Positions 35,689 to 59,555 of a stretch of 64,000 nucleotides of DNA are shown here, one piece after another. Under the pieces are notes generated by a model that ran no database searches, was not told where the DNA came from, and saw only the letters and a list, made by a program, of their open reading frames with translations. Both the position numbers and the translations under genes were made by a program. This DNA comes from Chloroflexota bacterium. Its GTDB lineage: Bacteria; Chloroflexota; UBA11872. The first letter of the stretch is position 1, and each line of letters begins with the position of its first letter. The stretch is taken from assembly GCA_028874175.1 (NCBI GenBank), contig JAPPLN010000117.1:3938-67937 (forward strand). Reading direction: 5' to 3'.

Positions 35689-35828
35689 AAATTGGTAGAC
35701 ATAACACGGGTCTTGAAGCTCATCGGGCACGCTCGTTGCCTGGCCGCCGCTGGCTCCGGGCAGACTTGCCGGGGGCCAGCGGCGGGCTGTTGAGCGCTTG
35801 AACTGGCGCCGGACCTCGCCGCGTTGGC

Positions 35829-36989: not shown

Positions 36990-37069
36990 AGCAAGACCTC
37001 CACATCCACTTCACGCCGGACGACCAAAGCGGCCCTCCGCTGCAACTGGCTGCCGCAACGAGAATTGCA

Positions 37070-37104
37070 TATTAAAATCATCAATAGATTTGCAATTTGC
37101 GAGC
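37070..37104. promoter_or_regulatory. AT-rich inverted repeat AATTGCA-N21-TGCAATT inside the 231-nt opuAB-opuAC spacer
   Basis: Read directly. It is the most AT-rich 40 nt of the operon. Confidence 0.25.
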
Positions 37105-37220
37105 AGCACTCTGTAGGCGTAGCCTGCACCCTATCAGCACGCACCTGCCTTGTCAAATAAATCGAAAGAACGGCCGATCCTTGCGCGGCCTTTTCCCAAG
37201 GCTTGGCGCGCTCGCCGCAA

Positions 37221-38288
37221 TCAGCCTACGGACCGCAGCATCTCTTGCCGGCTACGGGACACGGCCTGCGTGAGGCGGTCAATGATGATGGCGAGAAACA
37301 CGATGGATAGTCCGGCAATCGCACCGTTGCCCGGCTGATTCTTCTGAAGCGCTCGCAGCACGTTATCGCCCAGGCCGCCGGCGGCCACCATGCTGGCGAT
37401 GGTCACCATGGACAGGGCCATCAGGGTGGTCTGGTTGATTCCCGCCATGATTGTCGGCAAGGCCATGGGAATCTGGACTTTCGTCAGTATCTGCATGGGT
37501 GACGCGCCGAACGATCGAACGGCTTCAATCGTCTCGCTTGGAACCTGGCGGATCCCCAGATTCGTCAACCGGATGACCGGCGGTACGGCGTAGATGATCG
37601 TGGCGAAAATTCCGGCTGGCTTTCCCAGGCCGAAGGCCAGGATGCCAGGCAGGAGATAGACGAAGCTGGGCATGGTCTGCATCGCATCCAGAATCGGACG
37701 CATGAGGTTGTCGGAAAGCTGGTTCCGCGAGCCCAGGACCCCCAGCGGTAGGCCGATGAACACGGCAACAGCCACCGCCACCACCATGAGCGCAATGGTG
37801 TCAATCATGTTCTCCCACAGGTCCATGAAGCCGACGAATAGCATCGCCGCCACCGTAAACCCCAACAGCCGCCAACCCCCGACGGCATAGGACAGGAAGC
37901 CAAGGCCAACGATTATTGCCGGCCAGGGCACCCACTTGAGCCCGTTCTCAATCTGAAGCAGCACGGTGTCCACGGCTGTGCTCAATCCGTCGAACAGCCA
38001 GCTGCCGTCCGTGGTAATCCGGGTGACCGCATCGTCGATGGCCCCGCTCGCGACCTCGCGCACGGAGCGATCCAGTGTGATGGAACCGCCCCCCGAGGTC
38101 GGAACCTCCGAACTCGACACCGTCGTCGGAAAGCTCATCTCCGTGCCCCACACCAGCAAGCTCAGGACCAGCACCAGGAGAACCAGCGAGAGCCCGGCCA
38201 GCCAGGCATAGTGGCGCCGAATTACGTGGAGCGGCGTCCGCGACGATGACGTCGTTTCGCCGGGCGGCGCTCCGTCCATTCGAGCCAT
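37221..38288 (-). CDS. opuAB: Glycine betaine/proline ABC transporter permease
   Basis: The OpuAB/ProW-type permease core, including the EAA-like loop region. Confidence 0.9.
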   Translation of the reverse strand: MARMDGAPPGETTSSSRTPLHVIRRHYAWLAGLSLVLLVLVLSLLVWGTEMSFPTTVSSSEVPTSGGGSITLDRSVREVASGAIDDAVTRITTDGSWLFDGLSTAVDTVLLQIENGLKWVPWPAIIVGLGFLSYAVGGWRLLGFTVAAMLFVGFMDLWENMIDTIALMVVAVAVAVFIGLPLGVLGSRNQLSDNLMRPILDAMQTMPSFVYLLPGILAFGLGKPAGIFATIIYAVPPVIRLTNLGIRQVPSETIEAVRSFGASPMQILTKVQIPMALPTIMAGINQTTLMALSMVTIASMVAAGGLGDNVLRALQKNQPGNGAIAGLSIVFLAIIIDRLTQAVSRSRQEMLRSVG

Positions 38289-38290
38289 GC

Positions 38291-39514
38291 TTAAGTCCCC
38301 TGCTCGCCTTCAGCCATTCCAGCGAGCAACGCTCCCGGACGAATCTCACCAAGCAACGCTCGCGTGTCGTCAACGACGGCAATCGGATGCCGTGTCTGCG
38401 CCGCGATTGGAATGATATCTTCGATTAAGGCGTCAGGCGTCGTGGTGGTTGCTGGATCAACTTCCGCGCCTTCCAGGGATCTCCGACGTTCGTCGATGAG
38501 CGCCATCACCCGGTCCTTCGTGAGCACACCTCTCAGCGTGAAATCGCGCCCGATCAGAAACACGGCCTCTTGCCTGTGGCTGTCCATAATGTGCAACGCC
38601 GCGCGTGGCCCTTGCCGTTCGTAAACGACAACGTCAGATTCCTGCATAACCGCTCTGGCTTGAATGACTTTAGCTCGAGATACGTCCTGCACGAATTCAG
38701 TCACATACTCGTCTGACGGCAGCGTGACAATCTCCTCTGGCGAGCCCTCCTGAATGATTTCTCCATCCCTCATCACGGCAATTCGATCGCCGACTTTCAG
38801 GGCTTCATTTAGATCGTGCGTGATAAATACAATGGTCTTTTTCAGCTTGGTTTGCAGCGAGATAAGCTCGTCCTGTAGCTCCCGGCGTATGAGGGGATCG
38901 AGCCCACTGAACGGCTCGTCCATCAGCAGCATGTCGGGATTGACCGCCAGCGCCCGCGCAAGGCCAACACGCTGCTGCATACCACCGCTCATCTCTCTCG
39001 GGCGATAGTCTTCCCAGCCGCCGAGCCCCACGGTTTCTATGCTCTCCATCGACATCTGATAGCGAGTTTCTTTGTCGATTCCTCGTATCTCAAGACCGAG
39101 AGCTACGTTGTCCATCACGGAACGATGCGGCAGCAACCCATAGTTCTGAAACACCATCGCGATCTTCTGACGGCGAAACTCCATCAACTGGCTCGTTGTA
39201 TAGGACAGCACGTCCTCACCATCGATAGATATGCTGCCGCGCGTGGGTTCCACGAGCCTGATCAGGGCGCGTACCAGGGTTGACTTACCGCTGCCCGACA
39301 GCCCCATGACAACAAAGATCTGTCCCTGATCCACGCTGAACGACACGTCGCGAAGGGCAACAACGAGTCCAAGCTCGTCCTGAATCTCACTTCGAGACTT
39401 TGAGCCATAGGCGGCTTCCAGCGCGCGCTCCGGCTTGTTGCCAAAGACCTTCCAGAGTCCGTGCACGTCGACCTGCCGCGCACCCTGGGCCACGTTGGCA
39501 GTGCCGTCACTCAC
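38291..39514 (-). CDS. opuAA: Glycine betaine/proline ABC transporter ATP-binding protein with tandem CBS domains
   Basis: Walker A GLSGSGKST, the ABC signature and Walker B, followed by a C-terminal CBS pair. Confidence 0.9.
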   Translation of the reverse strand: MSDGTANVAQGARQVDVHGLWKVFGNKPERALEAAYGSKSRSEIQDELGLVVALRDVSFSVDQGQIFVVMGLSGSGKSTLVRALIRLVEPTRGSISIDGEDVLSYTTSQLMEFRRQKIAMVFQNYGLLPHRSVMDNVALGLEIRGIDKETRYQMSMESIETVGLGGWEDYRPREMSGGMQQRVGLARALAVNPDMLLMDEPFSGLDPLIRRELQDELISLQTKLKKTIVFITHDLNEALKVGDRIAVMRDGEIIQEGSPEEIVTLPSDEYVTEFVQDVSRAKVIQARAVMQESDVVVYERQGPRAALHIMDSHRQEAVFLIGRDFTLRGVLTKDRVMALIDERRRSLEGAEVDPATTTTPDALIEDIIPIAAQTRHPIAVVDDTRALLGEIRPGALLAGMAEGEQGT

Positions 39515-39838
39515 GACAACACCAGGGCCCGGACAGAAGAATCACGCACGTACGTGCCTGGATACGCACACCTGGGCATCAGCCTCGGCTCGCTCGGGTC
39601 GCCTGAACACTCGCCCGGCGACAGTCTCGTGCACATATCCCAGGTAGCGATCATTGCGCTCCGCCCAATCACATGGGACGCGCCGTTCATACTGCCCCAT
39701 GCGTACCTGGCTGTCATAGGCGGAACCACTCGATCCGCCGGGGAATCGACGCGGGGAAAGCGGCGCGCGTGACAGAATTCAACCGAGCATCCAGTCGCCG
39801 CGCGTGACCCCACCGGCCCTGAGCCGCCGCTGGAGCGC

Positions 39839-40708
39839 ATGATCGTCAGCCAGTCGCCACCACCCAACCACCGGGCCCTGCAGGCCATGGTGGACATGCT
39901 GGCCGATGACGATCCGTCCATTCGTGCCCGCGTCATCGCCCACCTCACCCAGGCCGGCGAGCGCGCCGTCGTTGCGCTGGAGTCCGCCGCGTGCACGGCC
40001 GCGCATCCGGACCGAATCGCGGAAGCGCTAACAGCCATCCACCGCGAAGAGGCCTTGGGAGGACTCGACGGGTTCCGCTCGATGGAGCCGAACGGCCCGG
40101 CCGAAACCGGCGCGCTCCTGGTTGCGCGAGTCATTGACCCCGGCATCGATACCGACGACGTTCTCCGATTCCTCGACAAGCTTGCGGACGCGGCCCCGGA
40201 ACCCATGCGCAACGCCGACCCGCAACAGGCGCTCCAGGCACTGGCCGAATACATGCACGCCGCATGGAGGTTCGACGGCGCTCGTGCGGACTATCCAAAC
40301 CCGGCCAACAGCCTGCTGGATCAGGTCGTCAAGCGCCGCACCGGGCTGCCCATCACCCTTTCCGTCGCCTATCTGGCGGTGGCCGACCGGGTTGGCATGC
40401 CCCTGGAGGGCGTTGGCCTGCCCGCCCATTTCGTCCTGCGCCATCCAGGCGCCCGGGATCGTCCGTACCTCGACCCGTTCAACCGGGCCCGCTTGCTCAA
40501 CCAGGCCGAATGCGAGGAGATCGTGCATACCCACGGCTTCACGCTGCGGCCCGAGCACCTGGCGACCGTGAGTCCGCAGGAAATCGCCGCGCGCATCTGC
40601 CGCAACCTCATCCTGGCCTATCGACGCCAACAGGATTCGCAGCGCGAGGAATTCGCCCGGGAAGCGCATCGGCGCCTGCGACCCGGCCAGGACCTGCTGA
40701 CCGTATGA
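39839..40708 (+). CDS. Transglutaminase-like / SirB1 (UPF0162)-family protein
   Basis: NSLLDQVVKRRTGLPITLSVAYLAVADRVGMPLEGVGLPAHFVLR matches the SirB1 N-terminal/transglutaminase-like core. Confidence 0.6.
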   Translation: MIVSQSPPPNHRALQAMVDMLADDDPSIRARVIAHLTQAGERAVVALESAACTAAHPDRIAEALTAIHREEALGGLDGFRSMEPNGPAETGALLVARVIDPGIDTDDVLRFLDKLADAAPEPMRNADPQQALQALAEYMHAAWRFDGARADYPNPANSLLDQVVKRRTGLPITLSVAYLAVADRVGMPLEGVGLPAHFVLRHPGARDRPYLDPFNRARLLNQAECEEIVHTHGFTLRPEHLATVSPQEIAARICRNLILAYRRQQDSQREEFAREAHRRLRPGQDLLTV

Positions 40709-49141: not shown

Positions 49142-49927
49142 CTAGCAGCCGAAGCCGAGGGTGAAGATGCAGAGCATGCCCTCGATGAACTTGTCGATGT
49201 TGGCGAGGGCGTTCAAGCCGAGTTCGGCCAGGGTGAACAGCGCTTCCGCGGTGAGCGCCCCGGCCTCGAGCAGGTCGAGCAGGTCGGCGTTGCCGGATTT
49301 CTGGACGAGCTCCGCGATCCCGGGGCCGTTAGGGTCGGCGCCGGCCGCCAGGAGCAGCCGCACGACCTCGGTGTTGCCGCGATCGACGGCGATGGCCAGG
49401 ACCGACAGGTCTTGCTCCGCCAGCGTGTTCGGGTCAGCGCCCGCGTCCAGCAGCAGCCGCACGATCTCGGCATCGCCCTCAATCGCGGCTGGCACCAGGA
49501 CCGGGATGCCGGATTCGCCCCTGGCGTTCGGGTCGGCGCCGGCGTCCAGCAGCATCGCCAGAATCGGGACATCGCCAGCGCTGGCAGCGAGCGACGCGGC
49601 AGGCTCGCCGTCCACGGTGCGGGCATCGGGATCGGCACCGGCATCCAGCAGCAGCGGGACGATTTCCAGATCGCCATGCTCCACGGCCACCGGCAGGGCC
49701 GAGCGGCCCTCGTCGTCCCGGTAATTGGGATCCGCCCCGGCCCACAGCGAAAGCTCCACCAGCGTGGTCCGGCGCTCAGCCACGTGATCCAGCAGCAGCG
49801 TCTCGTGACCAAGGACAAACCGGCCCAGGAAAAACAGGAGCACCGGCCCGACCAGCACCAGGGCCACACCGGCAGACAGCACCAACCGAACTCGGGACGT
49901 CACGGCTTCAGTCTCATCGACGCGCAC
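49142..49927 (-). CDS. Signal-anchored ankyrin-repeat protein (five ANK repeats)
   Basis: The N-terminus TSRVRLVLSAGVALVLVGPVLLFFLGRFVL is a TM anchor. ANK repeats follow: G-DPN-RD, ALPVAVEHGDLEIVPLLLDAGADPDA, …. Confidence 0.75.
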   Translation of the reverse strand: MRVDETEAVTSRVRLVLSAGVALVLVGPVLLFFLGRFVLGHETLLLDHVAERRTTLVELSLWAGADPNYRDDEGRSALPVAVEHGDLEIVPLLLDAGADPDARTVDGEPAASLAASAGDVPILAMLLDAGADPNARGESGIPVLVPAAIEGDAEIVRLLLDAGADPNTLAEQDLSVLAIAVDRGNTEVVRLLLAAGADPNGPGIAELVQKSGNADLLDLLEAGALTAEALFTLAELGLNALANIDKFIEGMLCIFTLGFGC

Positions 49928-50041
49928 GAAGTCAGCCCAGCGTCATTTCGAGTCCTTGCCCGACGCGAATCGCCACAGTGCCCGACAGTGGTTCGTCTTC
50001 CAATGAGAACCACTGTCGTCATCAGAGCACAAGCTGGATGA

Positions 50042-51049
50042 TCAATTCCACGCATTGCGAACCAGACTCTTGTGAAGCCGCTCGGCACACTCTTCCCAAG
50101 TGAACCTGAGGGCATACTTCCGGCAGTCACTTCGCTTCAGCGACAGCGCCCCAAGCGCCGCCTTCTTGAGATCGGTGTGTAGAACACCGACTTTGCTACT
50201 CGCTATGACATCTCTTGGACCCATCACGGGATACGCTGCCACGGGGATTCCGCTGGCAAGAGCTTCAATCATCACAATACCGAATGTATCGGTCTTGCTT
50301 GGGAAGACAAACACATCACTGTCCGCGTAGCACCGTGCCAAGCTTTCGCCGTGCTGCTCCCCCACGAAGCAGGCTTCCGGGTATCTTCGGCGTAGTGTCT
50401 CAAAGGCCGGACCACTGCCGACAACAACCTTGGTGCCGTCCAGACTCATGCCGAGGAAGGCGTCCAGATTTTTTTCTACAGCTACCCTGCCAACAAAGAG
50501 CCATATCGGGCGCCGAAGCCCGACAAAGAACAATTCTTCCCGAGGCCTAAATAGCCTGGTATCGACGCCTCTTGACCACGAACGGATATTCTTGAACTTT
50601 CGCTGTCGTAATTCCTTACGCAACGACTCCGTAGAAACGAGTACGGCCGAAGAAGGCGAGTGAAACCAGCGCAGCCACGCATATGTCCACAGCTCCGGAA
50701 TTCCGACACGAAGACGAAAGTAGCCAGGAAAATTCGTAGTGAAACTCGACGTGAAGTGAAGACCTCGACTTGCACAGTAGCAGCGAGCGGCTATCCCGAG
50801 GGGACCCTCAGTCACAACAAAGATATAGTTAGGTCGCAGTTCATTTATCATTCCGCCGAGTTTGGGCCAGACATTGATAGCCAGACGTATATCCGGCGAT
50901 CCGGGATGCGGAATCGTATAGAAGCGGTCGGGCGTAATCATCGTTACTTGATATCCAAACTCGTCAAGATATTCACGAATGCTAGCCAGTGTCCTCACCA
51001 CGCCGTTTATCTGGGGCTTCCATGTGTCGGTTACGATAAGGAGTCTCAT
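50042..51049 (-). CDS. GT4-family glycosyltransferase, probably a lipid (diacylglycerol-type) glycosyltransferase
   Basis: MRLLIVTDTWKPQINGVVRTL is a GT4 N-terminus like SqdX/MGS-type enzymes, and the C-terminal E…E region matches too. Low-GC gene. The start is chosen at 51049; alternatives are 51073 and 51136. Confidence 0.8.
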   Translation of the reverse strand: MRLLIVTDTWKPQINGVVRTLASIREYLDEFGYQVTMITPDRFYTIPHPGSPDIRLAINVWPKLGGMINELRPNYIFVVTEGPLGIAARCYCASRGLHFTSSFTTNFPGYFRLRVGIPELWTYAWLRWFHSPSSAVLVSTESLRKELRQRKFKNIRSWSRGVDTRLFRPREELFFVGLRRPIWLFVGRVAVEKNLDAFLGMSLDGTKVVVGSGPAFETLRRRYPEACFVGEQHGESLARCYADSDVFVFPSKTDTFGIVMIEALASGIPVAAYPVMGPRDVIASSKVGVLHTDLKKAALGALSLKRSDCRKYALRFTWEECAERLHKSLVRNAWN

Positions 51050-51222
51050 CGACGACGCAGCCGAATCAATCATGGTTGCGCGTAGACCTGTGTGCCATGG
51101 GCAAACCACCCAACGCCAAGGCCGGTGCAGGGCCAAGCTGAGGACCCAGGCGTGCCAGGAAATTGTCGATCCTCATCCGTTTCAGCTCTATGACACCTAG
51201 TCCGTTTTCTATGCCACAACCA

Positions 51223-52632
51223 TTATCGTGGTTCCAGAAACACTGGCATACCCCCCTTTGGACGGAGGCTAAACAGAAGCTCAAAGTCGATTCGATGATT
51301 GAGACTGTGCTGCACTCTCCAGTTCTGTCCAATCGTAGCCATGATCAGCTTCATCTCCATCCAGGCAAACCTCTCTCCGATACAGCGACGATGACCGCCA
51401 CCGAACGGAATGTAAGCAAACCGATGCAATGACCGTCGAGAATCCGGCGCCCAGCGCTCAGGAATAAATTTCGTCGGATTATCGAACCAACGCAGGTCGT
51501 GGTGAATGATGTACGGCGAGATACAGAGCAACGTTCCTGGCAGGACTTCATAGCCAGCCAGCTCAAAATTTTCCAAAGCAACACGCCCCATTCGCCAGAC
51601 TGGAGGGTACAGACGCATCGACTCCCTGATAACCTGTTCCGTATAGACTAGATTTGGGAGATCAGCCAATGTCGGGATTTCTCCCCCCAACACAGCATCC
51701 AGCTCCCTGTGAAATCGTGACTGAACTTCTGGATGTGTCCCGAGCAGGTACCAAGTCCAGGACAGTGCCGTCGTAACTGTCTCGTGACCCACCGCAAATA
51801 TGGTAATGATCTCATCCACAATCTGACGATCCGAAATGCCGCCGTTTACTGAGCCAGGGTGTTGCTGTGCCCCTGGATCGAGTAGCAGCGACAGCAAATC
51901 CTGACTTCCGTCAACAGTCCCACGCCGTTGCTCCATCATTCGACACGACAGACGATCGAGGTACGTCTTCTCGCGTCGAAACCTGCTCGATGCAGGTAAT
52001 GGTAGATAGTGCCAAAGATCACGAACTCGCTCATATAAGTGAAATCGCTTGTTCAGGTATCTATTTGCATAGTTCACTGCAGCCCCGATGCGTCTCACTT
52101 CATCGTCAGAAAAGTCCTGTCCGAACAGACAGCGCGTCACGATACTCAGCGTTATCTGCCGCATCTCGTCATCTATATCGATCCTCGTTCGCGCACTCCA
52201 TTTGTCAACGCACTTCAAGGTACACTTGATCATAGCTTCACAGAAACCATCGATCTGCTTCCGATGGAAAGCCGGCTGCATCAGTCGACGCTGTCTCGAA
52301 TGCAGTTCACCATCGGACGTCAACAAGCCATCACCCATCAGGTACTTCATCGCCTCAACGTTGCGCCACCTACCAATACGCTCGTGGTTGTCGACTAACA
52401 CTTCGCTAACTAACTCCGGACTGGAAACTAGGTAAACCAACCATGGCTTGAAGGACATCGTAACTATGTCCCCATATCGCGCAGCCTCTTCCATCAGGCC
52501 GATCGGGTCACGAAGGTACCGAATAGTCTGTCCAACAATCGGTGCTTCGGGCGGGCCCGGTGGTAGACGACTAGGCTTGATCTTCGGGTTTGGTGGTAGG
52601 CACGAATTTGATGGCAGGCAAGAATCTGACAT
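51223..52632 (-). CDS. Cytochrome P450 with a eukaryote-like PPGP hinge
   Basis: SRLPPGPPEAPIVG hinge, the I-helix AVGHETVTTAL, EIRESMRLYPPV (ExxR) and the heme loop FGGGHRRCIGERFA. Confidence 0.9.
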   Translation of the reverse strand: MSDSCLPSNSCLPPNPKIKPSRLPPGPPEAPIVGQTIRYLRDPIGLMEEAARYGDIVTMSFKPWLVYLVSSPELVSEVLVDNHERIGRWRNVEAMKYLMGDGLLTSDGELHSRQRRLMQPAFHRKQIDGFCEAMIKCTLKCVDKWSARTRIDIDDEMRQITLSIVTRCLFGQDFSDDEVRRIGAAVNYANRYLNKRFHLYERVRDLWHYLPLPASSRFRREKTYLDRLSCRMMEQRRGTVDGSQDLLSLLLDPGAQQHPGSVNGGISDRQIVDEIITIFAVGHETVTTALSWTWYLLGTHPEVQSRFHRELDAVLGGEIPTLADLPNLVYTEQVIRESMRLYPPVWRMGRVALENFELAGYEVLPGTLLCISPYIIHHDLRWFDNPTKFIPERWAPDSRRSLHRFAYIPFGGGHRRCIGERFAWMEMKLIMATIGQNWRVQHSLNHRIDFELLFSLRPKGGMPVFLEPR

Positions 52633-52633
52633 G

Positions 52634-53287
52634 CTACTCTCTTCGCCCTGAAGATATTAAAGCTTGCCATAACGCCGAGCCCATCCGAAGTTTCCTTCTC
52701 TTCAAGCGCATATCTGTGAGAATCACTATAGCGAATAGGGACGAGAAATACGCCACGAGAACCCACGAGAGTCCAGAAAACAGCTTTGCAATAGCCAATG
52801 ACCATATGAACGAACATCCGAATCCGAGCCCAGTATTTTGCGTTCGCAGCATCACCAACGCCGCAGGAAATGCTGTAATCAGCATTTGGCCGGGAATGAC
52901 GGCAGCTAAGACACCCAGGGCGGTCGCAGCACCCCGGCCACCACGGAACCCAAGCCATACTGGCCATATGTGGCCAGCCATGGCGGCGATCCCTCCAATC
53001 ATTCCCAGTGTCGAGACAGGCTGCTCGAACTCACCAGAATTGACCATCAAGCTCATCAAATTGGATACGAAGACGGCTGCGAATCCTTTAGTCATATCCA
53101 GTACACCAACAAATAGGCCCCAACGGATTCCCAGCAAGCGTCCAGCGTTCGTGGCTCCCATGTTGCCGTCCCCAAGGGATCGGATGTCTGAGTCCTTGCC
53201 GAGAACTCGGCATGCAACGAGCCAAGCTGTTGGCAGGCTACCTATAAGATACCCGACCAACGATGCTGCAACGGGGGCCCAGATCAT
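52634..53287 (-). CDS. plsY: Glycerol-3-phosphate acyltransferase PlsY paralog
   Basis: GDGNMGATNAGR and HIWPVWLGFRGGRGAATALGVL motifs. Low GC. It is 1 nt from the P450 start. Confidence 0.8.
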   Translation of the reverse strand: MIWAPVAASLVGYLIGSLPTAWLVACRVLGKDSDIRSLGDGNMGATNAGRLLGIRWGLFVGVLDMTKGFAAVFVSNLMSLMVNSGEFEQPVSTLGMIGGIAAMAGHIWPVWLGFRGGRGAATALGVLAAVIPGQMLITAFPAALVMLRTQNTGLGFGCSFIWSLAIAKLFSGLSWVLVAYFSSLFAIVILTDMRLKRRKLRMGSALWQALISSGRRE

Positions 53288-53535
53288 TCTTTACTAGCTA
53301 CCGTCTGGAAAATTGTCCACGTCTAGTGCCATGCCTCTATCGGCCTATCACGCGGGTCGATTTGTCCAGAGCGAAAGTTTGGCGCTTGGTCCGTGTTCCC
53401 TGTTCCGATCTACAGCGAGGGGTCTCGAGCGAACGCCTTAACAACATTAACTTCCAATCCAACAAGCCAGAGACTTCAAGACCGTTAGCCTTGAGCCAGG
53501 ATGACGGAAATGTTCCGAGTGCCGGCCTAGCATCA

Positions 53536-53610
53536 TTCGAAGCGTCAAGACGAATACGCCGCGCACGTCCTCGCGGTAGTCGTTCTGACGTCCGGCGCAG
53601 CGGTTCGATC
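53536..53610 (-). pseudogene. Degenerate third copy of the ankyrin-flanking module (…QNDYREDVRGVF)
   Basis: gaatacgccgcgcacgtcctcgcggtagtcgttctgacg matches 56349..56388 and 57049..57088 of the ankyrin gene. No intact ORF remains. Confidence 0.35.
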
Positions 53611-53830
53611 CGGGAGTGGCGCGGCGTGCGCAACCTCTCTTCTGTCTCCGGGTCGCGCAGCAGAAGCCGCTTGATACCTCTTCATTCTTAACTCGTCCTA
53701 AGCGCCATCATCTGTTCCACCATCTCCACACACTCGGGGCAATCGGATCCTGACCGGCCCGGGTGTCCACTCTGCTCGTGGACCTGGGTCACTACTTCAT
53801 CGAAGGCTTCCCTAGCAGCCCTGGATAATT

Positions 53831-54184
53831 TCATTCTTCATCAGGCGACCGACCGTACCGATTGGATCCGTCGTCGCTCGGGAGCATCATGAACACCAGG
53901 AAAACTATCCAGCCGACCAATGGAACCAAGATTATAAGAAACCACCAGCCACTCTTGCCTGAATCATGGAGACGCCGGACTGAAACCGTCAACCCAGGAA
54001 GAAATAGCAATACCGCCAATCCCCAATAAGCTATCCCGAATACCGTGTGGACATCCGCAAGTATCGAGAGCGTTATGAGGACGATGACATAGGCGAGATA
54101 AAACCACCAGAATTCCGAGCGTCTGGCGCGACCTTCAAAGTCCGCGTAGTGTTCGAAAATTACGCTATTACACGCATTCCACAC
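53831..54184 (-). CDS. DUF805-family membrane protein
   Basis: RRSEFWWFYL and RRLHDSGKSGWW motifs. Confidence 0.7.
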   Translation of the reverse strand: MWNACNSVIFEHYADFEGRARRSEFWWFYLAYVIVLITLSILADVHTVFGIAYWGLAVLLFLPGLTVSVRRLHDSGKSGWWFLIILVPLVGWIVFLVFMMLPSDDGSNRYGRSPDEE

Positions 54185-54249
54185 TGGGAACCTCCGTCCT
54201 TTGCGCTATGCCTCTTCCGCTGCACCAGTACCGCGGGAAACTCATTGAC

Positions 54250-56013
54250 CTATATCCTCGACCATCTGAAGGGTGACGCGATCAGCGTCATCGTCAACGC
54301 TGTAAGCGCCAAGCCGGGGAATATGACGATCCACGGCGCAGCTCGAATTTGTTGCATCGGCACAGCCATCATGCCGCCCCACGATGGTGTAGGAGGCTCG
54401 ATTCCCAGGCCGAGGAAGCTCAGCGTTGCTGCCATGAGGATGGACAGCCCGAAGTGAAGCGTCACCAGCGCAATGATGGGATTAATGGCATCGGACAGGC
54501 TGAAACCGCCGCTGGCCTTGAGGACTGCCACCTCGTCGCGGGTGGCCCGGGCGATTCTTGGCCATAGGACGAGGGTCACCGCAATTGGAAGGCCCGTTAG
54601 GCCCGGATCAAACGCCGCCGTCACCAGCATTGCAAAAAGCAGCAGGGGAAAGGCCGGTATGTTGTCCAACGCTCCCGTGATAATCGCGTCGACCTTGCCG
54701 CCGGCATAGCCGGAAAGCAGGCCCACCCCGCCGCCTACCACAGCGACGGGGATCAGGGAGAGGAGCGCCACTGCCAGGATGGACCTCGCGCCGTGAATCA
54801 ACCGGCTCAGGACGTCGCGTCCGAGAGCGTCGGTTCCCAGCAGATGCCCAGCTCCGGGGGAGGACGATGCGTCCTCGATTGACACTCGGACTGGATCTTG
54901 CGTCGCAATGATTGGTGCGAAGACGGCCACGACAAGCAGGATTCCAATTGCTATCAAAGGAACCCTAGGCACCTTCCGTGCGCTGGACATGGATGGAACG
55001 GGTGGGATGTTCGTCCTCGTGCTGACCGGCTGCCCGCTGGATGGTCGGGCCGCAGCCCCAGGTTCCAGCCGGCGAACGAGCAAGGCCGTGACCAGGCTGA
55101 AGCCCAGGACTATCACCGCCATTCCCGCTGCCGCCATGGCCACCGCCTGGAGCACGGGGTAGTCACGCGCCTGAGCGGCGAAGACAGCCAGCGAGCCGAT
55201 GCCAGGTGCAGTGAACATCACGGTCTCGACCACGATCGCGCCAGCCAGGAAGACCCCAAACAGGATCGGTGTCCAGATGAGGACGTTGCCGAGGCAGCGC
55301 ACCAGGCACGCCCTTACCGGAAGTCGACTACCGCGCGAAGGCTCGATGTCCTGGCTGTCCAGAACTTCCACGATGCTGGAGCGTACGACTCGGACCATGA
55401 CTGCTCCGGCAAGAATCGCCAGGACCAGCGAGGGCAAGACAAGCTGGTTCATCGGGCCGTCCCGCGACCCCATCGGCAGGACGAGCATCAGCATCAGGGC
55501 GAGCCAGAAGCTCGGAACTCCCACGCCAAACACGGCCGCACCCCCCACGACACGGTCAATCAAACTGCCGCGGCGGGTGGCGGCCAAGACCCCCAGAGGC
55601 ATGGAGACAGCCGCCGCGAAGAGCATCGTTAGTGGCAGCAACGACAGGGTAGAAGGCAAACCCTCAAATACCAGGTCGCGGACCGCTGTGCCGCTCTCGA
55701 ACGAGTGGCCAAAGTCCCCCCTGGACATATCGCCTATCCAAGTCAGGTATCGGCTAATGGGGGAGGGGGATTCAAGACCCAGAGACTCACGAAGGAGAGC
55801 CGACTCCTCGCTGAGAAAGGAGTCTTCCGGAAGAATAACCGTGAGAACAAATACTGCCACCGAGAGGATGAACAACAGTACGACGCCCGTGACGAGGCGG
55901 GAAACGATATAGGTCCTGAAGTCCCCGGTAGAAAGAGGCATTCTGGAACCCCCAACGTCCGCGGCATGCGATGCAACTTGAGGATTGCGGGATGAAGCGT
56001 CTGTGTGAGTCAT
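54250..56013 (-). CDS. Fused peptide/nickel-type ABC permease (DppB-like and DppC-like halves in one polypeptide), orphan
   Basis: The first half has a DppB-type core. The second half has HLLGTDALGRDVLSRLIHGARSIL and a DppC-type EAA region. No SBP or ATPase gene is nearby. Confidence 0.8.
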   Translation of the reverse strand: MTHTDASSRNPQVASHAADVGGSRMPLSTGDFRTYIVSRLVTGVVLLFILSVAVFVLTVILPEDSFLSEESALLRESLGLESPSPISRYLTWIGDMSRGDFGHSFESGTAVRDLVFEGLPSTLSLLPLTMLFAAAVSMPLGVLAATRRGSLIDRVVGGAAVFGVGVPSFWLALMLMLVLPMGSRDGPMNQLVLPSLVLAILAGAVMVRVVRSSIVEVLDSQDIEPSRGSRLPVRACLVRCLGNVLIWTPILFGVFLAGAIVVETVMFTAPGIGSLAVFAAQARDYPVLQAVAMAAAGMAVIVLGFSLVTALLVRRLEPGAAARPSSGQPVSTRTNIPPVPSMSSARKVPRVPLIAIGILLVVAVFAPIIATQDPVRVSIEDASSSPGAGHLLGTDALGRDVLSRLIHGARSILAVALLSLIPVAVVGGGVGLLSGYAGGKVDAIITGALDNIPAFPLLLFAMLVTAAFDPGLTGLPIAVTLVLWPRIARATRDEVAVLKASGGFSLSDAINPIIALVTLHFGLSILMAATLSFLGLGIEPPTPSWGGMMAVPMQQIRAAPWIVIFPGLALTALTMTLIASPFRWSRI

Positions 56014-56045: not shown

Positions 56046-56160
56046 TTAGCCCCAATCAAGAGCATGGGCCCAGCCGGCACCAGGGCCACACGGGCGAACA
56101 GGACGAACCGAACCCGAGCTGTCACGGAAATCGCGCCGCCAATGTCCGGTGGCTGAGGTT
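56046..56160 (-). pseudogene. Truncated copy of the recurring N-terminal signal-anchor module (…RVRFVLFARVALVPAGPMLLIGAKKHS*)
   Basis: DNA and protein similarity to 49790..49927 and 59900..60010. It ends at a stop 27 nt before the permease start. Confidence 0.4.
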
Positions 56161-56334: not shown

Positions 56335-57282
56335 TCAGAAGGCCCAGGCAAAGACGCCGCGCACGTCCTCGCGGTGGTCGTTCTGGCAGGCGGCCTCCGC
56401 CTGGTCGCCGAAGACCTTTTGGTAGATGCCGACGTTGTTGTCGTTGCCCAGGTGGTTTTCCACGATGTCGTTCAGGTCGACACAGGTCGTGGGCCAGCCG
56501 AGTTCGGGCTCAACGGCCGACGCCGCCAGCAGGATTTGCACGATCTCCGTGTGCCCGCGCCACTGCGCTTCGCCCAGGGGGGTCTCGCCATCCGAGTCGC
56601 GCGCATTCACGTCGACCCCGGCATCGACAAGGATCTGCACCATCTCGGTGTGCCCGCGCCAGACCGCCTGAAAAAAGATTGGATCCCCATCGGCGTCCCT
56701 GGCATTCACATCGGCCCCGGCGTCCACCAGGATGCGTGCGACGTCCGTGTAGTCCCGCCAGATCGCCGAACGCAGCACCGGGTGGCCATCGGAATCCAGG
56801 GCGTTCACGTTGGCGCCGGCGTCGGCCAGGATGCGCACGATTTCCACGTGGTTGCGCCATATGGCCGAATGAATGAGCGGGTCGTTGTCTTCGTCGCGCG
56901 TGTTGGCGTTGAGTCCGCCGGCCACGAGCGTGCGCACCTGCGCGGTCCGGCCCCGCCACACGGCTCCGTACAGGGCGTCGTTAGCCAGGGGCAAGGACGA
57001 CCCCGCGACGGCCGGTTGTGCGGCGGGTGACGCGAGCCCGAAGGCCCAGGCGAACACGCCACGCACGTCCTCGCGGTGGTCGCCCTGGCAGGCGGCCTCG
57101 GCCTGGTCGCCGAAGACGCGCTGGTAGATGCCGACGTTGTTGGTACGGCCCAGATGCTGTTCCACGATGTCGTTGAGGTCGACGCAGGTGGTGGGCCACT
57201 GCGCGAAGACGGGCGTGGCAACAGCCGCGGCCACAGCGACGGCCACGACGGCCGCAATGAGAATTGTTCGTATCCGTCGCAT
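56335..57282 (-). CDS. Secreted ankyrin-repeat protein flanked at N- and C-terminus by a duplicated 48-aa two-Cys module (WPTTCVDLNDIVExHLG…DHREDVRGVFAWAF)
   Basis: Signal peptide MRRIRTILIAAVVAVAVAAAVATPVFAQ. The module is at aa 29-76 and again as the last 48 aa. Four or five ANK repeats lie between (IWRNHVEIVRILADAGANVNALD…). Confidence 0.75.
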   Translation of the reverse strand: MRRIRTILIAAVVAVAVAAAVATPVFAQWPTTCVDLNDIVEQHLGRTNNVGIYQRVFGDQAEAACQGDHREDVRGVFAWAFGLASPAAQPAVAGSSLPLANDALYGAVWRGRTAQVRTLVAGGLNANTRDEDNDPLIHSAIWRNHVEIVRILADAGANVNALDSDGHPVLRSAIWRDYTDVARILVDAGADVNARDADGDPIFFQAVWRGHTEMVQILVDAGVDVNARDSDGETPLGEAQWRGHTEIVQILLAASAVEPELGWPTTCVDLNDIVENHLGNDNNVGIYQKVFGDQAEAACQNDHREDVRGVFAWAF

Positions 57283-57344
57283 ATGAAGCCACCCTTCTTC
57301 ACATTCGCAGAGGTTCATTCGACCCTTCCGATATTGAATTTTCT

Positions 57345-57437
57345 TCACGTTAAGCCAGGACTGTCAAAGGAGGAGGCGCAGGAGGCGGCGGCCACCGCCA
57401 CCACTGCTGCCATGAGGATTGTTCGTATCCGTCGCAT
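57345..57437 (-). pseudogene. 30-aa mini-ORF duplicating the ankyrin signal peptide (MRRIRTILMAAVVAVAAAS…); a paralog remnant or uORF
   Basis: atgcgacggatacgaacaatcctcatggcagcagtggtggcggtggcc against the real start atgcgacggatacgaacaattctcattgcggccgtcgtggccgtcgct. The differences are largely synonymous. Confidence 0.3.
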
Positions 57438-57619: not shown

Positions 57620-58282
57620 CTAGTCGTTGTCCAGCAATCCGTTCCGCACGGCCCAGACAACCATCTCCTGGCTCGACCCGGCCCCCAGCTTGTCGCGGAT
57701 GCCATAGATGGCATTGCGGATAGTCAGCGGACGATTCCCTCGAGCCTCGCCGATCTCCGCATACGACATCCCTTCGGCAAACAGCTTGAGGATCTCCTGT
57801 TCGCGCACGGTGAGCCGTGACAGCTCGCTACCAGCGTCCTCGCCAGAACTGTCGCGAACACCGGCAAAGGCTCGCCGCACCACGTCGCCGGGCACGCGAA
57901 ACTCCCCGTCGACAACGTCACGAATCGTGGCAAGCAGTTCGTCCTTGCCGGTGAACTTTTGCAGATAGCCCGTGGCGCCCGCGGCAATCGCGTCGATTAC
58001 GGTGTGATCGTTGGTCGACGCCGTCAACATGAGCACGCGGGTTCCAGGCACGGCCTCCATGATTTCGCGGCAGGCATCAACACCGTTCTTTACCGGCATA
58101 ATGACGTCCATGATGATGACGTCGGGCTTGACCCGCCGCGCCACATCCACGGCCTCGCAGCCGTCCCGGGCCTGGCCCGCGACCTGAAAGTCCTCGGACC
58201 GCTCCAGCATTTCTCGCAGGCCGTCCCTCATGATGGAGTGATCGTCCACGATCATGACCCTGGCTGGCGGACTTGCAGTCAC
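57620..58282 (-). CDS. NarL/FixJ-family response regulator (REC plus LuxR-type HTH)
   Basis: MIVDDHSIMRDGL…DVIIMDVIMP receiver, and a C-terminal LTVREQEILKLFAEGMSYAEIGEARGNRPLTIRNAIYGIRDKLG. The GTG start at 58282 has an AAGGATGG RBS; the ATG at 58255 is an alternative. Confidence 0.85.
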   Translation of the reverse strand: MTASPPARVMIVDDHSIMRDGLREMLERSEDFQVAGQARDGCEAVDVARRVKPDVIIMDVIMPVKNGVDACREIMEAVPGTRVLMLTASTNDHTVIDAIAAGATGYLQKFTGKDELLATIRDVVDGEFRVPGDVVRRAFAGVRDSSGEDAGSELSRLTVREQEILKLFAEGMSYAEIGEARGNRPLTIRNAIYGIRDKLGAGSSQEMVVWAVRNGLLDND

Positions 58283-58295
58283 GTTGGCACCATCC

Positions 58296-59555
58296 TTAAG
58301 TTGGATCAATTTCGATTTCACAGGTAACGGTTGTGCCCCTTCCAGGACGGCCTGAGGTGACGTGGAGCCGACCGTTCATTTGTTCGGCGTTGGCGTGCAT
58401 GTATTTGAATCCGTGCCCGCGCTCGGCGTAATCGTCGGGAAGACCGATGCCGTCGTCCGACACTGACATGCGCAGACTCTTGTCCTGATAGTCCAGGGCG
58501 ACCGAGACCTTGCTGGCGCGGGCGTGCCGCAAAGCGTTCGTCAGCGCATTGTGCGCGATCGAAAAGAGCCGACTGCGGGTCACCGAAGGGAGCGGCCGTT
58601 CCCTGCCGGTCTGGACGACCGACGCGGGAATCGAGGTGATGGTCTCAAAGGATGCGGCGTGCAGTTCCAGCACGCGGCCCAACGACCGGCCTTCGAATAT
58701 GAGCCCCGCGTCGATCGGGTGCCGAAGCTCCCACATCGCCGCCTTGGAGAGCGCCGATGTCGCTTCGAGCTTGGACACCATCTCGCGCCGTGACTGCTCG
58801 GTCATCTCGAGCGCCGTGTCGATTCCAATCCCAATCATGAATACGGACTGGGCCGTGGTGTCATGAATCGTCTGCGAGAGCTCGATTCGCTCCCGATGCA
58901 GCTCGCGCTCGCGTTTCACCGCCCCTTCTCTACGGATTCTCTCGGCCCGGGACAGGAGGCTCACGGACGCCGCCACGGCATACATTACGATGGTTCTGCC
59001 AAACAGTTCTTTCTCTTCCTTCGCCTCGAGGTCGAGACCCGAAGCAACGGCCAAACATACGATTACGTAAGCGACGACTACTACTGTGGTCCACACCATA
59101 CTCAATCTGAACGAGCCGAAGAAGACCGCAAACCAGGCTAGCGAAGGGTAATACAGCAGATAGAAGAGATTGTTATTCAAACCGCCGCCAATTGCCGTGC
59201 CAGCGGTTATGATGATCACGTCCAGCACGCTAAGCGCAAGCATCCAGCGTATCGTCACTGAAGGACCGGCAACTACGCGATAGTGGACGATGCCGTTTAC
59301 TATTATAAGCAGCACGAGGAAGCTTATGTAGGAAGTATATGTAAACGCGGTAAATGTTGGCCGATATGCCAAGTCAATAATGCTGGCCCCGTGAATGAAC
59401 CAGCGAACCCAGACAAAGATCTTGGCCGGGTACCTCAGCTCTTCCGGATCGGTTGTGTACGGGTGCCAGTTTCTAATTGCACCAGCCTCAACCACAGCGG
59501 ATAGGAGCCGCTGCGCTCGCCTCCTGAAAGCTACATCGTTGCCTGCCGACATCAC
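58296..59555 (-). CDS. Sensor histidine kinase (HisKA_3/NarL-partner type) with a polytopic N-terminal sensor
   Basis: Five or six TM helices, the H-box region LHRERIELSQTIHDTTAQSVF, and an HATPase_c region (ALTNALRHARAS…DDGIGLP). Confidence 0.85.
   Translation of the reverse strand: MMSAGNDVAFRRRAQRLLSAVVEAGAIRNWHPYTTDPEELRYPAKIFVWVRWFIHGASIIDLAYRPTFTAFTYTSYISFLVLLIIVNGIVHYRVVAGPSVTIRWMLALSVLDVIIITAGTAIGGGLNNNLFYLLYYPSLAWFAVFFGSFRLSMVWTTVVVVAYVIVCLAVASGLDLEAKEEKELFGRTIVMYAVAASVSLLSRAERIRREGAVKRERELHRERIELSQTIHDTTAQSVFMIGIGIDTALEMTEQSRREMVSKLEATSALSKAAMWELRHPIDAGLIFEGRSLGRVLELHAASFETITSIPASVVQTGRERPLPSVTRSRLFSIAHNALTNALRHARASKVSVALDYQDKSLRMSVSDDGIGLPDDYAERGHGFKYMHANAEQMNGRLHVTSGRPGRGTTVTCEIEIDPT

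Follow-up and report, generated by a model that had tools for sequence, protein, structure and literature searches.

A conserved PlsY-like/P450 gene pair and a glycosyltransferase in a low-GC island of Chloroflexota: a possible pathway to an unusual glycolipid

We propose, with a probability of about 0.5, that a low-GC island in a Chloroflexota contig carries a mobile module of uncultured Chloroflexota that makes an unusual glycolipid, whose backbone would be oxygenated by a cytochrome P450 and acylated from acyl-phosphate. The island was found in a 64-kb stretch of DNA (the window, hereafter) whose source is probably a sponge-associated bacterium or sponge symbiont. Its three genes, encoding a PlsY-like protein, a P450, and a GT4 glycosyltransferase, form a membrane-lipid module that is conserved and apparently undescribed. 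None of the literature that could be searched was found to describe it, in agreement with the initial annotation, which did not recognise the triad as a described pathway. The relevant features of the window are:

49950..54250, no strand assigned: low-GC island, mean GC 0.53 versus 0.67 in the host, delimited by composition profiles and per-gene GC and GC3
50042..51073 (or 51049), minus strand: GT4 glycosyltransferase with Glyco_transf_4 and Glycos_transf_1 domains and the N-terminus MRLLIVTDTWKPQINGV
51223..52632, minus strand: cytochrome P450 of 469 aa (PF00067, E 2.3e-84, 284 bits)
52634..53287, minus strand: PlsY-family 7-TM acyltransferase of 217 aa (PF02660, E 4.8e-34) with the GDGNMGATN motif
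53288..53830, minus strand: 543-nt region upstream of the PlsY-like gene, described from the sequence as read and from repeat D4
53831..54184, minus strand: small DUF805 membrane protein (PF05656, E 5.5e-31; GC3 0.58)

The GC content is 0.50-0.57 across positions ~49,950-54,250, versus 0.66-0.74 in the left flank and 0.61-0.67 in the right flank (500-nt windows), and the cassette averages 0.533 against 0.666 in the remainder of the 64-kb window. The drop initially reported is confirmed by these windows and by GC3, but the value of about 50% given for it was too low, the mean being ~0.53. GC3 is 0.55-0.58 in the four minus-strand genes of the island (DUF805, PlsY-family, P450, and GT4) and 0.82-0.89 in the flanking ankyrin and glnA genes. 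Since GC3 is lowered as well, the drop is not an effect of amino-acid composition. The identities first assigned to these genes were recovered with Pfam profiles and motifs, including GDGNMGATN in the PlsY-type protein and FGGGHRRCIG in the P450. Composition argues that the island was horizontally acquired, as previously suggested, and no prophage gene or IS element was seen within it. The Pfam scan revealed no transposase or integrase domain among its genes, the window contains no tRNA, and the sole flanking repeat (49832-49905 versus 56054-56127, 78%) is a 5' fragment of the ankyrin gene; the island is thus marked in the window by neither mobility genes, nor a tRNA target, nor flanking direct repeats of its own. 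Elsewhere, the cassette has a lower GC than its own flanks in five of six other genomes (L007, L008, L016, L017, and L018), and transposase or resolvase genes adjoin it in L009, L185, and L188.

We examined 12 loci that encode close PlsY-like proteins of the 'TDPR' clade (the window, L007, L008, L009, L016, L017, L018, and L185-L189), all from Chloroflexota where named. The P450 gene is directly downstream of the PlsY-like gene in 11 of them and within ~3 kb in L188. Such linkage was observed in none of 80 ordinary PlsY loci, nor in the five loci, four of which had flanks, that encode the remoter 'HFW' proteins P0046 and P0063. In the window, exactly one nucleotide separates the stop of the first gene from the start of the second (...gag TAG c ATG tca...), as initially described. 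In relatives the two genes are fused: natural PlsY-like::P450 fusions account for at least four protein clusters, with matches to both PF02660 and PF00067 in P0248 (681 aa), P0249 (681 aa), and P0253 (661 aa). L016 encodes the fusion as a 681-aa ORF, and in L189 the fusion is followed by a GT4. These fusions arose repeatedly. The third gene is a GT4 in seven of the 12 loci and a PAP2_3 gene in four (L008, L017, L185, and L188), where it holds the place of the GT4 (PF14378, E 1e-36 in L017); it is absent from L018, where neither was found within 6 kb of the cassette. GT4-type and PAP2_3-type cassettes are interleaved on the P450 tree, and both alternatives come from families that decorate a lipid alcohol. 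Hence, the co-occurrence anticipated for the three genes corresponds to a real conserved unit, but because PAP2_3 replaces GT4 in a third of the cassettes, its invariant core is the PlsY-like/P450 pair and not the triad.

This conservation makes it hardly credible that the genes are adjacent by chance, or that they are the decaying cargo of an old insertion devoid of joint function. Signs of decay do exist: fragments of the ankyrin gene lie inside and beside the island, the PlsY-like gene was left uncalled in one deposited MAG (L003), and the P450 of L187 is frameshifted (at 4x coverage). Yet every ORF in the window is intact, the P450 protein shows 100% identity across seven contigs from independent assemblies and sources, gene order is kept across proteins merely 50-70% identical, fusions recurred, and active-site residues are strictly conserved.

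The PlsY-like protein scores 118.3 bits with PF02660, for a gathering cut-off of 24.1, and its AlphaFold model (pLDDT 78, pTM 0.69) retrieves PlsY structures only in Foldseek (5xj5-5xj8; probability 1.00, TM 0.65-0.72, 200 columns). The protein is thus predicted to have the seven-TM PlsY fold, and shares family and fold with the enzyme of the PlsX/PlsY/PlsC pathway (Aquifex, 5XJ5-5XJ9). It differs from the latter in several respects. First, it scores 94.1 bits with TIGR00023, the NCBIfam PlsY equivalog, under the cut-off of 137.2. Second, this match covers positions 8-152 of a 196-position profile, and motif 3 (HxxNIxRL), at the C-terminus, is missing. Third, the gene lies outside the housekeeping context, coupled to a P450 or fused with one; no second PlsY-family gene was found in the 64-kb window. 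The protein belongs to a rare 'GDGN...LTDPR' clade: of the 12,362 representatives of the family, only 6 score E<=1e-30.

We mapped the residues with known roles in Aquifex PlsY (PMC5700162) onto this protein, using MAFFT and hhalign, which agree, and a sample of 29 sequences of the clade. Those involved in acyl-phosphate binding and in the oxyanion (Asn37, Ala40/Thr41, His92, and the GGxG of Loop3) correspond to N42, A45, T46, H106, and GGRG in the window. The 'phosphate hole' (His92 and the GGxG loop), the Thr41 carbonyl contact, and the oxyanion residue Asn37 are therefore conserved, and none of the 29 members departs from N37, T41, H92, or the GGxG loop. The glycerol-3-phosphate pocket, unlike that of PlsY, has been rebuilt: Ser35/Arg45/Lys104/Asn180/Ser142/His177 correspond to D40/R50/R118/L195/G153/D192, replacing the phosphate clamp and the 2-OH contacts (S35D, K104R, N180L, H177D, and S142G). 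Five of these six positions are non-canonical, two of them now being Asp, and Arg45 alone is kept. Across the clade, S35 is changed to D in 27 of 29 members, H177 to D or E in 27, N180 to L, F, or M in 29, and K104 to R in 29, while S142 is G in the window and remains S in 27. Among the best 150 family representatives, the HxxN motif accompanies none of the 18 proteins with D at the S35 position and 78 of the 111 with S. The rebuilt pocket suggests that the PlsY-like protein is probably not a glycerol-3-phosphate acyltransferase. This, together with the sub-threshold TIGR00023 score, goes against its initial annotation as an acyl-phosphate:glycerol-3-phosphate acyltransferase.

If the protein were nevertheless an extra but ordinary PlsY, it would turn glycerol-3-phosphate into lysophosphatidic acid, the usual pathway would lead on to diacylglycerol, the P450 would hydroxylate an acyl chain, and the GT4 would produce a hydroxylated glycosyl-diacylglycerol. 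We find this distinctly unlikely. It would fit the PF02660 membership, the fold, the affiliation of the GT4 with diacylglycerol glycosyltransferases, and the retention of Arg45, and the K104R change leaves 25% of the activity in Aquifex PlsY (PMC5700162). However, Ser35 and His177 have become Asp and Asn180 has become Leu, when in Aquifex activity is largely or almost entirely lost in the S35A/C/T variants, with all tested changes of His177, and in N180A/D/H/Q, and replacing the clamp residue Asn180 by Asp raises the Km for glycerol-3-phosphate 22-fold (PMC5700162). The score under the PlsY equivalog cut-off also counts against it, and the fusion with the P450 would be unexplained if intermediates had to leave for PlsC and a phosphatase. 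Since the PlsY-like protein does not appear to be a plain glycerol-3-phosphate acyltransferase, the hydroxylated glycosyl-glycerolipid originally put forward as the product is unlikely as far as it depends on ordinary glycerol-3-phosphate chemistry.

The P450 has the FGGGHRRCIG heme loop, ESMR, PERW, the acid-alcohol pair GHET (VGHETV), and LPPGPP at residues 23-28, and lacks an N-terminal TM helix. Its PDB matches include CYP102, CYP3, CYP4, CYP97, and CYP170, the closest solved structures being CYP170A1 (2e-62), CYP97A3, CYP3A4, and CYP102 (about 1e-33 to 1e-38). The initial annotation suggested a CYP102-like or CYP110-like family; naming a CYP family takes an identity of 40% or more with its members, and the P450 shares 40-41% with P450s of Anabaena and Cylindrospermum, themselves of unconfirmed CYP name. 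The P450s linked to PlsY-like genes form one clade, sister to unlinked P450s of Chloroflexota. The PPGP hinge, which had been called eukaryote-like, is indeed present; it is also shared by the unlinked bacterial sister clade and is thus uninformative on a eukaryotic origin. Among known systems, it comes close to natural P450 fusion proteins such as P450-BM3 (CYP102) and to membrane-anchored microsomal P450s: it is from the same broad sequence group, has the PPGP hinge, and, in relatives of this cassette, is fused to a partner domain. Here, in contrast, the fusion partner is an N-terminal integral-membrane acyltransferase rather than a reductase or a single-pass anchor, and no redox partner is encoded nearby.

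These traits could also be read as tailoring or detoxification of terpenoids or sterols from the host or from microbes, in which the P450 would hydroxylate a small hydrophobic compound, the GT4 would glycosylate it, and the PlsY-like protein would mainly serve as a membrane anchor or scaffold for the P450, like the N-terminal anchor of microsomal P450s. Indeed, the nearest solved P450s act on a sesquiterpene (CYP170A1) and a carotenoid (CYP97A3), and not on fatty chains, which sits uneasily with a lipid module. Furthermore, the best NCBIfam matches are albaflavenone and pentalenene oxygenases (far under cut-off), the P450 has the hinge without a TM helix of its own, the 7-TM domain of the fusions is exactly where eukaryotic P450s have their anchor, and the glycerol-3-phosphate pocket is degenerate. 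Still, we consider this reading unlikely: an inert anchor would not require acyl-phosphate-site residues that are invariant in 29 of 29 proteins, the GT4 has 49-55% identity with diacylglycerol glycosyltransferases, whose clade is reported to be <25% identical to other GT4s (PMC8231724), and the alternative gene, PAP2_3, is from a family of lipid head-group enzymes.

Depending on the start chosen, the GT4 has 343 aa (ATG at 51073) or 335 aa (MRLLIV, at 51049), and the spacer between it and the P450 measures 149-173 nt. It is 49% identical (323 aa, E 9e-104) to the PlcP-adjacent Agt1 orthologue of Pseudomonas aeruginosa and 54-55% identical to alphaproteobacterial homologues. Agt1 of P. aeruginosa was characterised as a monoglucosyl-diacylglycerol synthase (PMC8231724, PMC8528852). 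The UDP-sugar motifs reported for the Agt/GTcp clade, GRVAxEKN and FPSxTDTFG (PMC8231724), are found as GRVAVEKN and FPSKTDTFG in invariant alignment columns, including the equivalent of Asp256. The sequence therefore places the GT4 in the Agt/GTcp clade of diacylglycerol glycosyltransferases; a likeness to diacylglycerol glycosyltransferases, of the SqdX/MGS types, had been noted from the start. It resembles the enzymes of PlcP-Agt lipid-remodelling operons (Agt of Agrobacterium, GTcp of SAR11, Agt1/Agt2 of P. aeruginosa) in its length, these motifs, the equivalents of Asp256 and Trp320, and a Gly-rich N-terminus, as well as in its place at the end of a small lipid operon, which would supply its acceptor. 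Yet its upstream partner is the PlsY-like/P450 pair and not the phospholipase C PlcP (Metallophos). In Nisaea (L015) and P. aeruginosa (L190), the GT4 homologue has a Metallophos gene next to it; none was found in the island or its flanks. Another difference concerns the catalytic His104, which is essential in GTcp and predicted to contact diacylglycerol (PMC8231724). With GTcp numbering transferred through homologues rather than from GTcp itself, its equivalent is a Thr (FTTNFPGY, versus (Y/I)HTRFPEY in proteobacterial homologues), as in all four cassette GT4s compared; other Chloroflexota have a Ser. The replacement of this essential residue implies that the acceptor of the GT4, or even its activity, may differ.

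For the preferred reading, a glycolipid with an unusual backbone, we infer the acyl donor, the type of acceptor, the order of steps, and the product as follows. The PlsY-family enzyme would still take an acyl group from acyl-phosphate and transfer it to an acceptor other than glycerol-3-phosphate, phosphate-free, hydroxyl-bearing, and probably lipidic. The P450, whose translation is coupled to that of this enzyme here and which is covalently joined to it in relatives, would lie against it on the cytoplasmic face, and either make the acceptor hydroxyl or oxygenate the product. The resulting lipid would have two tails and a free alcohol, which the Agt-type retaining GT4 would then glycosylate with a hexose or hexuronic acid taken from a UDP-sugar; the glycolipid so formed would contain no phosphorus and have a non-canonical backbone. 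Where PAP2_3 replaces the GT4, in the sister cassettes, this phospho-head-group transferase would build a phospholipid on that backbone instead. No gene for acyl-phosphate supply (plsX or a fatty-acid kinase) was found in or near the cassette, nor any for UDP-sugars or for a redox partner of the P450. The His-less GT4, the Gly at Ser142 in the window, and the lack of a third gene in L018 are also less easily reconciled with a lipid module.

The PAP2_3 proteins resemble known head-group transferases in the sister cassettes only, at the position of the GT4; the window has none, and none reaches an equivalog-level match. Their sole NCBIfam match is to phosphoinositol-dihydroceramide synthase, very weak (E 0.0025) and far under cut-off. 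We take the PAP2_3 Pfam family to include inositol-phosphorylceramide synthases, which raises the possibility of an aminolipid or ceramide-like product: the PlsY-like protein would N-acylate a long-chain amino alcohol from acyl-phosphate, with the new Asp pair binding the protonated amine, the P450 would hydroxylate either the acyl chain or the base, and the final sugar or phospho-head group would come from the GT4 or PAP2_3, as in the synthesis of glycosyl-ceramide or inositol-phosphoceramide. The two acidic residues that the acceptor pocket has gained (D40 and D192) and the alpha-glycosides made by retaining GT4 enzymes would suit such a product. We give it a slim chance, as no serine palmitoyltransferase or other sphingoid-base gene is near any cassette, the Asp residues could merely neutralise the retained Arg50 and Arg118, and the PAP2_3 match is so far below its cut-off.

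Finally, the region upstream of the PlsY-like gene is its probable promoter region, with no Rfam match and no promoter signal above chance in 53288..53830. Positions 53548-53596 (repeat D4, 84% identity to 56346-56394) are a remnant of the adjacent ankyrin gene, from the part that encodes its terminal domain. The DUF805 gene is tentatively regarded as an accessory gene of the island; among the other cassettes, L008 alone has a DUF805 gene (71% identity), located directly upstream of its PlsY-like gene.

The GC content drops sharply along the window, from 0.66-0.74 left of ~49.9 kb to 0.50-0.57 at 49.95-54.25 kb, and then returns to 0.61-0.67 (500-nt windows), with a mean of 0.533 in the cassette against 0.666 in the remainder of the window. 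The GC3 of the four island genes is 0.55-0.58, to be compared with 0.85 and 0.82 in two flanking ankyrin genes and 0.89 in glnA, so that the anomaly lies in codon usage and not in protein composition. These profiles bear out the low-GC island described in the initial annotation, and every motif cited there was found in the island genes:

53831-54184, minus strand, DUF805 gene
52634-53287, minus strand, PlsY-family gene
51223-52632, minus strand, cytochrome P450 gene
50042-51049/51073, minus strand, GT4 glycosyltransferase gene

One single base separates the stop of the PlsY-like gene from the start of the P450 (TAG c ATG). The Rfam search of the island gave no match, the promoter and terminator scan gave counts at shuffle expectation, and the ~150-nt spacer between P450 and GT4 has no conserved element beyond overall relatedness. 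The window has matches among contigs of Chloroflexota MAGs, and seven contigs from independent assemblies encode an identical P450 protein. In part from flanks rich in ankyrin-repeat genes, we infer that the DNA probably comes from a sponge symbiont. At locus L003 (4572-5222, MAG GCA_028874585.1) the PlsY-like ORF is intact, with 100% DNA identity and no gene call on record. Its protein has no NCBI accession in the cluster look-up, so searches restricted to protein databases miss it.

The relatives of the PlsY-like protein fall into a small close group (49-70% identity) and a larger distant one (40-48%). We inspected 12 distinct loci of the close group, counting the window once. A P450 gene lies directly downstream of the PlsY-like gene in 11 of them, and in the remaining one, L188, P450 genes lie within ~3 kb. 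The third gene is a homologue of the window GT4 in seven loci (the window, L007, L009, L016, L186, L187, and L189), a PAP2_3 gene in four (L008, L017, L185, and L188), and neither of the two within 6 kb in one (L018). Neighbour-joining places the PlsY-linked P450s together in a single clade whose sister is the unlinked P450s, and cassettes of the GT4 and PAP2_3 types are interleaved inside the linked clade. The constant part is the PlsY-like acyltransferase with the P450 to which it is physically coupled; the third enzyme varies. No P450 was found at the loci of the distant PlsY-like proteins P0046 and P0063 (four with flanks), nor a PlsY-like neighbour beside Chloroflexota P450s at ~50% identity (L020-L033). 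A metagenome scan with the clade alignment as query found no new cassettes among the matches listed; these were ordinary PlsY genes and hence serve as a negative control, in which none of the 80 loci has a P450, GT4, or PAP2_3 neighbour and 61 are of the GSGN type (again among the matches listed). A tblastn search of the PlsY-like protein against plasmids, where Chloroflexota replicons such as the Thermomicrobium megaplasmid were sought, returned weak matches to Bacillus plsY only. In L188 (7960-9132), which holds the most divergent cassette, the PlsY-like gene is followed by an APH/EcKL-family kinase gene, with the PAP2_3 gene divergent to it and two P450 genes within 3 kb; this arrangement may represent one more form of the module.

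The coupling extends to fusion in L016, where the PlsY-like and P450 reading frames form a single 681-aa ORF. A search with this ORF returned three more protein clusters carrying both PF02660 and PF00067: P0248 (681 aa), P0249 (681 aa, followed by a GT4 in locus L189), and P0253 (661 aa, with a frameshifted 3' end). An assembly artefact in L016 is ruled out by these three clusters, and since the fusion is present in several of them it is real and recurrent. Such recurrence is strong evidence that the PlsY-like protein and the P450 function together as a physical unit. Seven transmembrane helices make up PlsY, whose active site opens to the cytoplasmic side and includes motif 3, at the C-terminal end (PMC5700162). 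On this topology, a P450 fused at the C-terminus of the PlsY-like protein would sit in the cytoplasm against the membrane.

The PlsY-like protein passes the Pfam model (118 bits) and fails the NCBIfam PlsY equivalog (94 bits vs 137), leaving the C-terminal quarter of the latter unmatched. Its AlphaFold model (pLDDT 78) matches solely the Aquifex PlsY structures, over 200 columns. We aligned 29 clade members with eight members of the distant clade and eight canonical PlsYs (E. coli, Neisseria, Azospirillum, Listeria, Acetoanaerobium, Bacillus, Fusobacterium, and Enterococcus), assigning residue roles from the structural paper on the Aquifex enzyme (PMC5700162); the mappings of the PlsY-like protein by MAFFT and hhalign are concordant.

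Table. PlsY residues and roles, state in the P450-linked clade (29 sequences), and equivalent in the window.
Asn37, oxyanion: invariant; window N42
Ala40/Thr41, acyl carbonyl: invariant; window A45/T46
His92 and GGxG loop, "phosphate hole": invariant; window H106 and GGRG
Ser35, glycerol-3-phosphate phosphate clamp: Asp in 27/29; window D40
Lys104, glycerol-3-phosphate phosphate clamp: Arg in 29/29; window R118
Asn180, glycerol-3-phosphate phosphate clamp: Leu/Phe/Met in 29/29; window L195
Arg45, glycerol-3-phosphate phosphate clamp: Arg in 24/29; window R50
His177, glycerol-3-phosphate 2-OH contact: Asp/Glu in 27/29; window D192
Ser142, glycerol-3-phosphate 2-OH contact: Ser in 27/29; window G153

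In the Aquifex enzyme such replacements are severely damaging: the mutants S35A/C/T, N180A/D/H/Q, and all those tested at H177 retain little or next to no activity, and with Asp in place of the clamp residue Asn180 the Km for glycerol-3-phosphate is ~22-fold higher (PMC5700162). The initial annotation had read the gene as an ordinary glycerol-3-phosphate acyltransferase, a reading at odds with the replaced clamp and 2-OH residues and with the missed equivalog score. We infer instead an enzyme that would still use acyl-phosphate and transfer the acyl group to an acceptor other than glycerol-3-phosphate. The charge of the two kept arginines, Arg50 and Arg118, may be cancelled by the new Asp residues, and with Leu195 the acceptor pocket becomes more hydrophobic; both features point to a neutral, lipid-like alcohol as acceptor, the alternative being a cationic one (an amine). 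In 1.84 billion representative proteins, searched exhaustively, 12,362 members of the PlsY family were found, only six of them at E<=1e-30. Among the best 150 of the 12,362, the HxxN motif accompanies Ser at the Ser35 position in 78 of 111 cases and Asp in 0 of 18, and the TDPR signature of the close clade occurs in only two representatives among the matches listed.

The distant PlsY-like clade, which we call HFW, is larger and found in Dehalococcoidia (L010-L013; P0046, P0063, and relatives), with the signature GDGN.GA[AG]N ... vHFW. Its conserved context in other Dehalococcoidia is housekeeping-like (Aminotran_4 - PlsY - EamA - arylsulfotransferase). It lacks Ser35, Thr41, and Asn180, and these losses mean that its proteins are not clearly canonical PlsYs; their activity appears doubtful.

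The catalytic signatures of the P450 are all intact. Its nearest solved relatives are CYP170A1 (2e-62), 7wzl (an unnamed P450), CYP97A3 (1e-51), CYP3A4, CYP46A1, CYP102, and CYP120, and the nearest from cultured organisms are cyanobacterial (40-41% identity). The protein has no transmembrane helix of its own, its N-terminus consisting of a Pro-rich segment and an LPPGPP hinge, and no redox partner is encoded near the cassette. The PPGP hinge was rejected as a mark of eukaryotic origin, being also present in the unlinked bacterial sister clade.

The window GT4 has more than 8000 homologues; those linked to cassettes are 61-74% identical to it, and alphaproteobacterial proteins 54-55%. A Pseudomonas aeruginosa homologue (49% identity over 323 residues, E 9e-104) lies between genes for a "UDP-2,3-diacylglucosamine diphosphatase" and an adenylate cyclase. 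We take these to be PlcP and cyaB, and the locus to be PA3219-PA3218. Agt1 (PA3218) has been shown biochemically to make monoglucosyl-diacylglycerol (PMC8528852). The homologue in Nisaea is directly downstream of a Metallophos gene, the arrangement of the published PlcP-Agt lipid-remodelling operon (PMC4796936), which the P. aeruginosa record shares. The window GT4 contains both UDP-sugar clade motifs, GRVAxEKN and FPSxTDTFG, and keeps the equivalents of Asp256 and Trp320. The position of His104, a residue essential in the SAR11 enzyme GTcp and predicted there to contact diacylglycerol (PMC8231724), is occupied by Thr in every cassette GT4 and by Ser in the other Chloroflexota homologues. With the motifs kept and His104 replaced, the donor chemistry is probably conserved and the acceptor site altered.

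Each part comes from a known family, and we read the whole as a lipid biosynthetic operon, whose unusual features are the reworked acceptor site of its PlsY clade and the PlsY::P450 fusion. The earlier proposal of a conserved, acquired, and undescribed lipid or glycolipid cassette was right in outline. In the searchable part of the literature we found no paper on a PlsY-P450 connection and nothing relevant on P450 and lipids of sponge Chloroflexi. In the simplest model, which we propose, the PlsY-like/P450 pair would use P450 hydroxylation and acyl-phosphate-dependent esterification to make an unusual two-tailed lipid alcohol, to which the third enzyme, a sugar or phospho-head-group transferase, would then add a polar head; both third-enzyme families act on a lipid alcohol. 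The product in the window would be a phosphorus-free glycolipid, and its backbone might be a hydroxy-acyl glycerolipid, a diol-type lipid, or an amino-alcohol lipid. That the pair builds a glycerol-free backbone, capped as an alpha-glycoside by the retaining Agt-type GT4, is a long shot to which we give roughly one chance in eight. One possibility is then that the P450 yields a long-chain diol or hydroxy-alkyl compound, esterified by the remodelled PlsY with acyl-phosphate; alternatively, the backbone would be an N-acylated amino alcohol. To our knowledge, the 1,2-diol lipid pathway of Chloroflexota is still without resolution. Such long-chain membrane lipids are known in the phylum, and the 2009 genome paper of Thermomicrobium roseum left their pathway unresolved (PMC2615216). 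Neither the P450 relatives nor the plasmid tblastn revealed a direct link between the cassette and diol-lipid organisms, and the diol reading therefore stays speculative.

Carrier Chloroflexota appear to be abundant sponge symbionts, and unusual alpha-glycolipids have been isolated from sponges. A glycerol-free backbone, if true, would mean that genes for diol-type lipids, or for some of these glycolipids, had been found for the first time. It would also be the first activity on something other than glycerol-3-phosphate in the PlsY family, which catalyses the committed step of bacterial phospholipid synthesis, is an antibiotic target, and, as far as we know, is treated as having a single function. 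A clade with the acyl-phosphate site kept, the acceptor pocket rebuilt, and recurrent fusion to a P450 would represent new enzymology on the PlsY fold, and the coupling a new way to anchor and feed a bacterial P450. With Agt-type glycosyltransferase and PAP2_3 interchangeable as the final enzyme, the module would be expected to yield polar lipids of an unknown class. The cassette takes 3.2 kb, or two genes when fused, and this small size makes the prediction directly testable by heterologous expression and lipidomics.

In L007, L008, L016, L017, and L018, too, the GC of the cassette is below that of its flanks; L009 is the only case in which cassette and host agree, the host genome there being at ~0.55-0.58 GC. 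Transposase, IS21, or resolvase genes abut the cassette in L009, L185, and L188. A search of the window for insertion signatures found no tRNA, integrase, or IS element, and flanking repeats were rejected as such a signature, being fragments of ankyrin genes. The spacer between DUF805 and the PlsY-like gene holds (53548-53596) a 49-nt remnant of the "DHREDVRGVFAWAF" terminal domain of the neighbouring ankyrin gene, 84% identical to 56346-56394. Just upstream of an ABC permease gene, 56054-56127 is a 74-nt copy (78% identity) of 49832-49905, the 5' end of the ankyrin gene at 49142-49927. These fragments resemble traces left by recombination between ankyrin paralogues and suggest rearrangement after the arrival of the cassette. 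"Eukaryote-like" genes adjoin the cassette in five of the 12 loci (L008, L186, L187, L189, and the window flanks), encoding ankyrin, LRR, and fibronectin-III proteins and an S8/CARDB/ankyrin protein of more than 2800 aa, which hints that the cassette resides in symbiosis-type variable regions.

A HisKA_3 histidine kinase and a LuxR-type response regulator are encoded 3.4 kb upstream of the cassette (57620-59555, minus strand), with intermediate GC3 (0.69-0.76). They are orthologous to the pair at 5096-7163 of L008 (regulator 62%, kinase 52% identity), which is divergently adjacent to its DUF805-PlsY-like-P450 cassette, and are absent near the other ten cassettes. This two-component system could be a dedicated regulator or the remnant of a larger shared island. 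The ankyrin-repeat protein at 56335-57348 (minus strand) carries the same ~60-aa segment, WPTTCVDLNDIVE.HLG..NNVGIYQ.VFGDQAEAACQ.DHREDVRGVFAWAF, at its N- and C-terminal ends, outside its best-scoring Pfam matches. Between this gene and the island, a 587-aa ORF (54250-56013, minus strand; intermediate GC3, 0.72) fuses two Opp/Dpp/Nik-type ABC permease domains, one B-like and one C-like, with no ATPase or binding-protein gene alongside. Farther away, a second and milder low-GC stretch (35800-40250, 0.58-0.62) encodes on the minus strand a glycine-betaine-type ABC transporter consisting of an OpuAC binding protein, a permease, and an ATPase.
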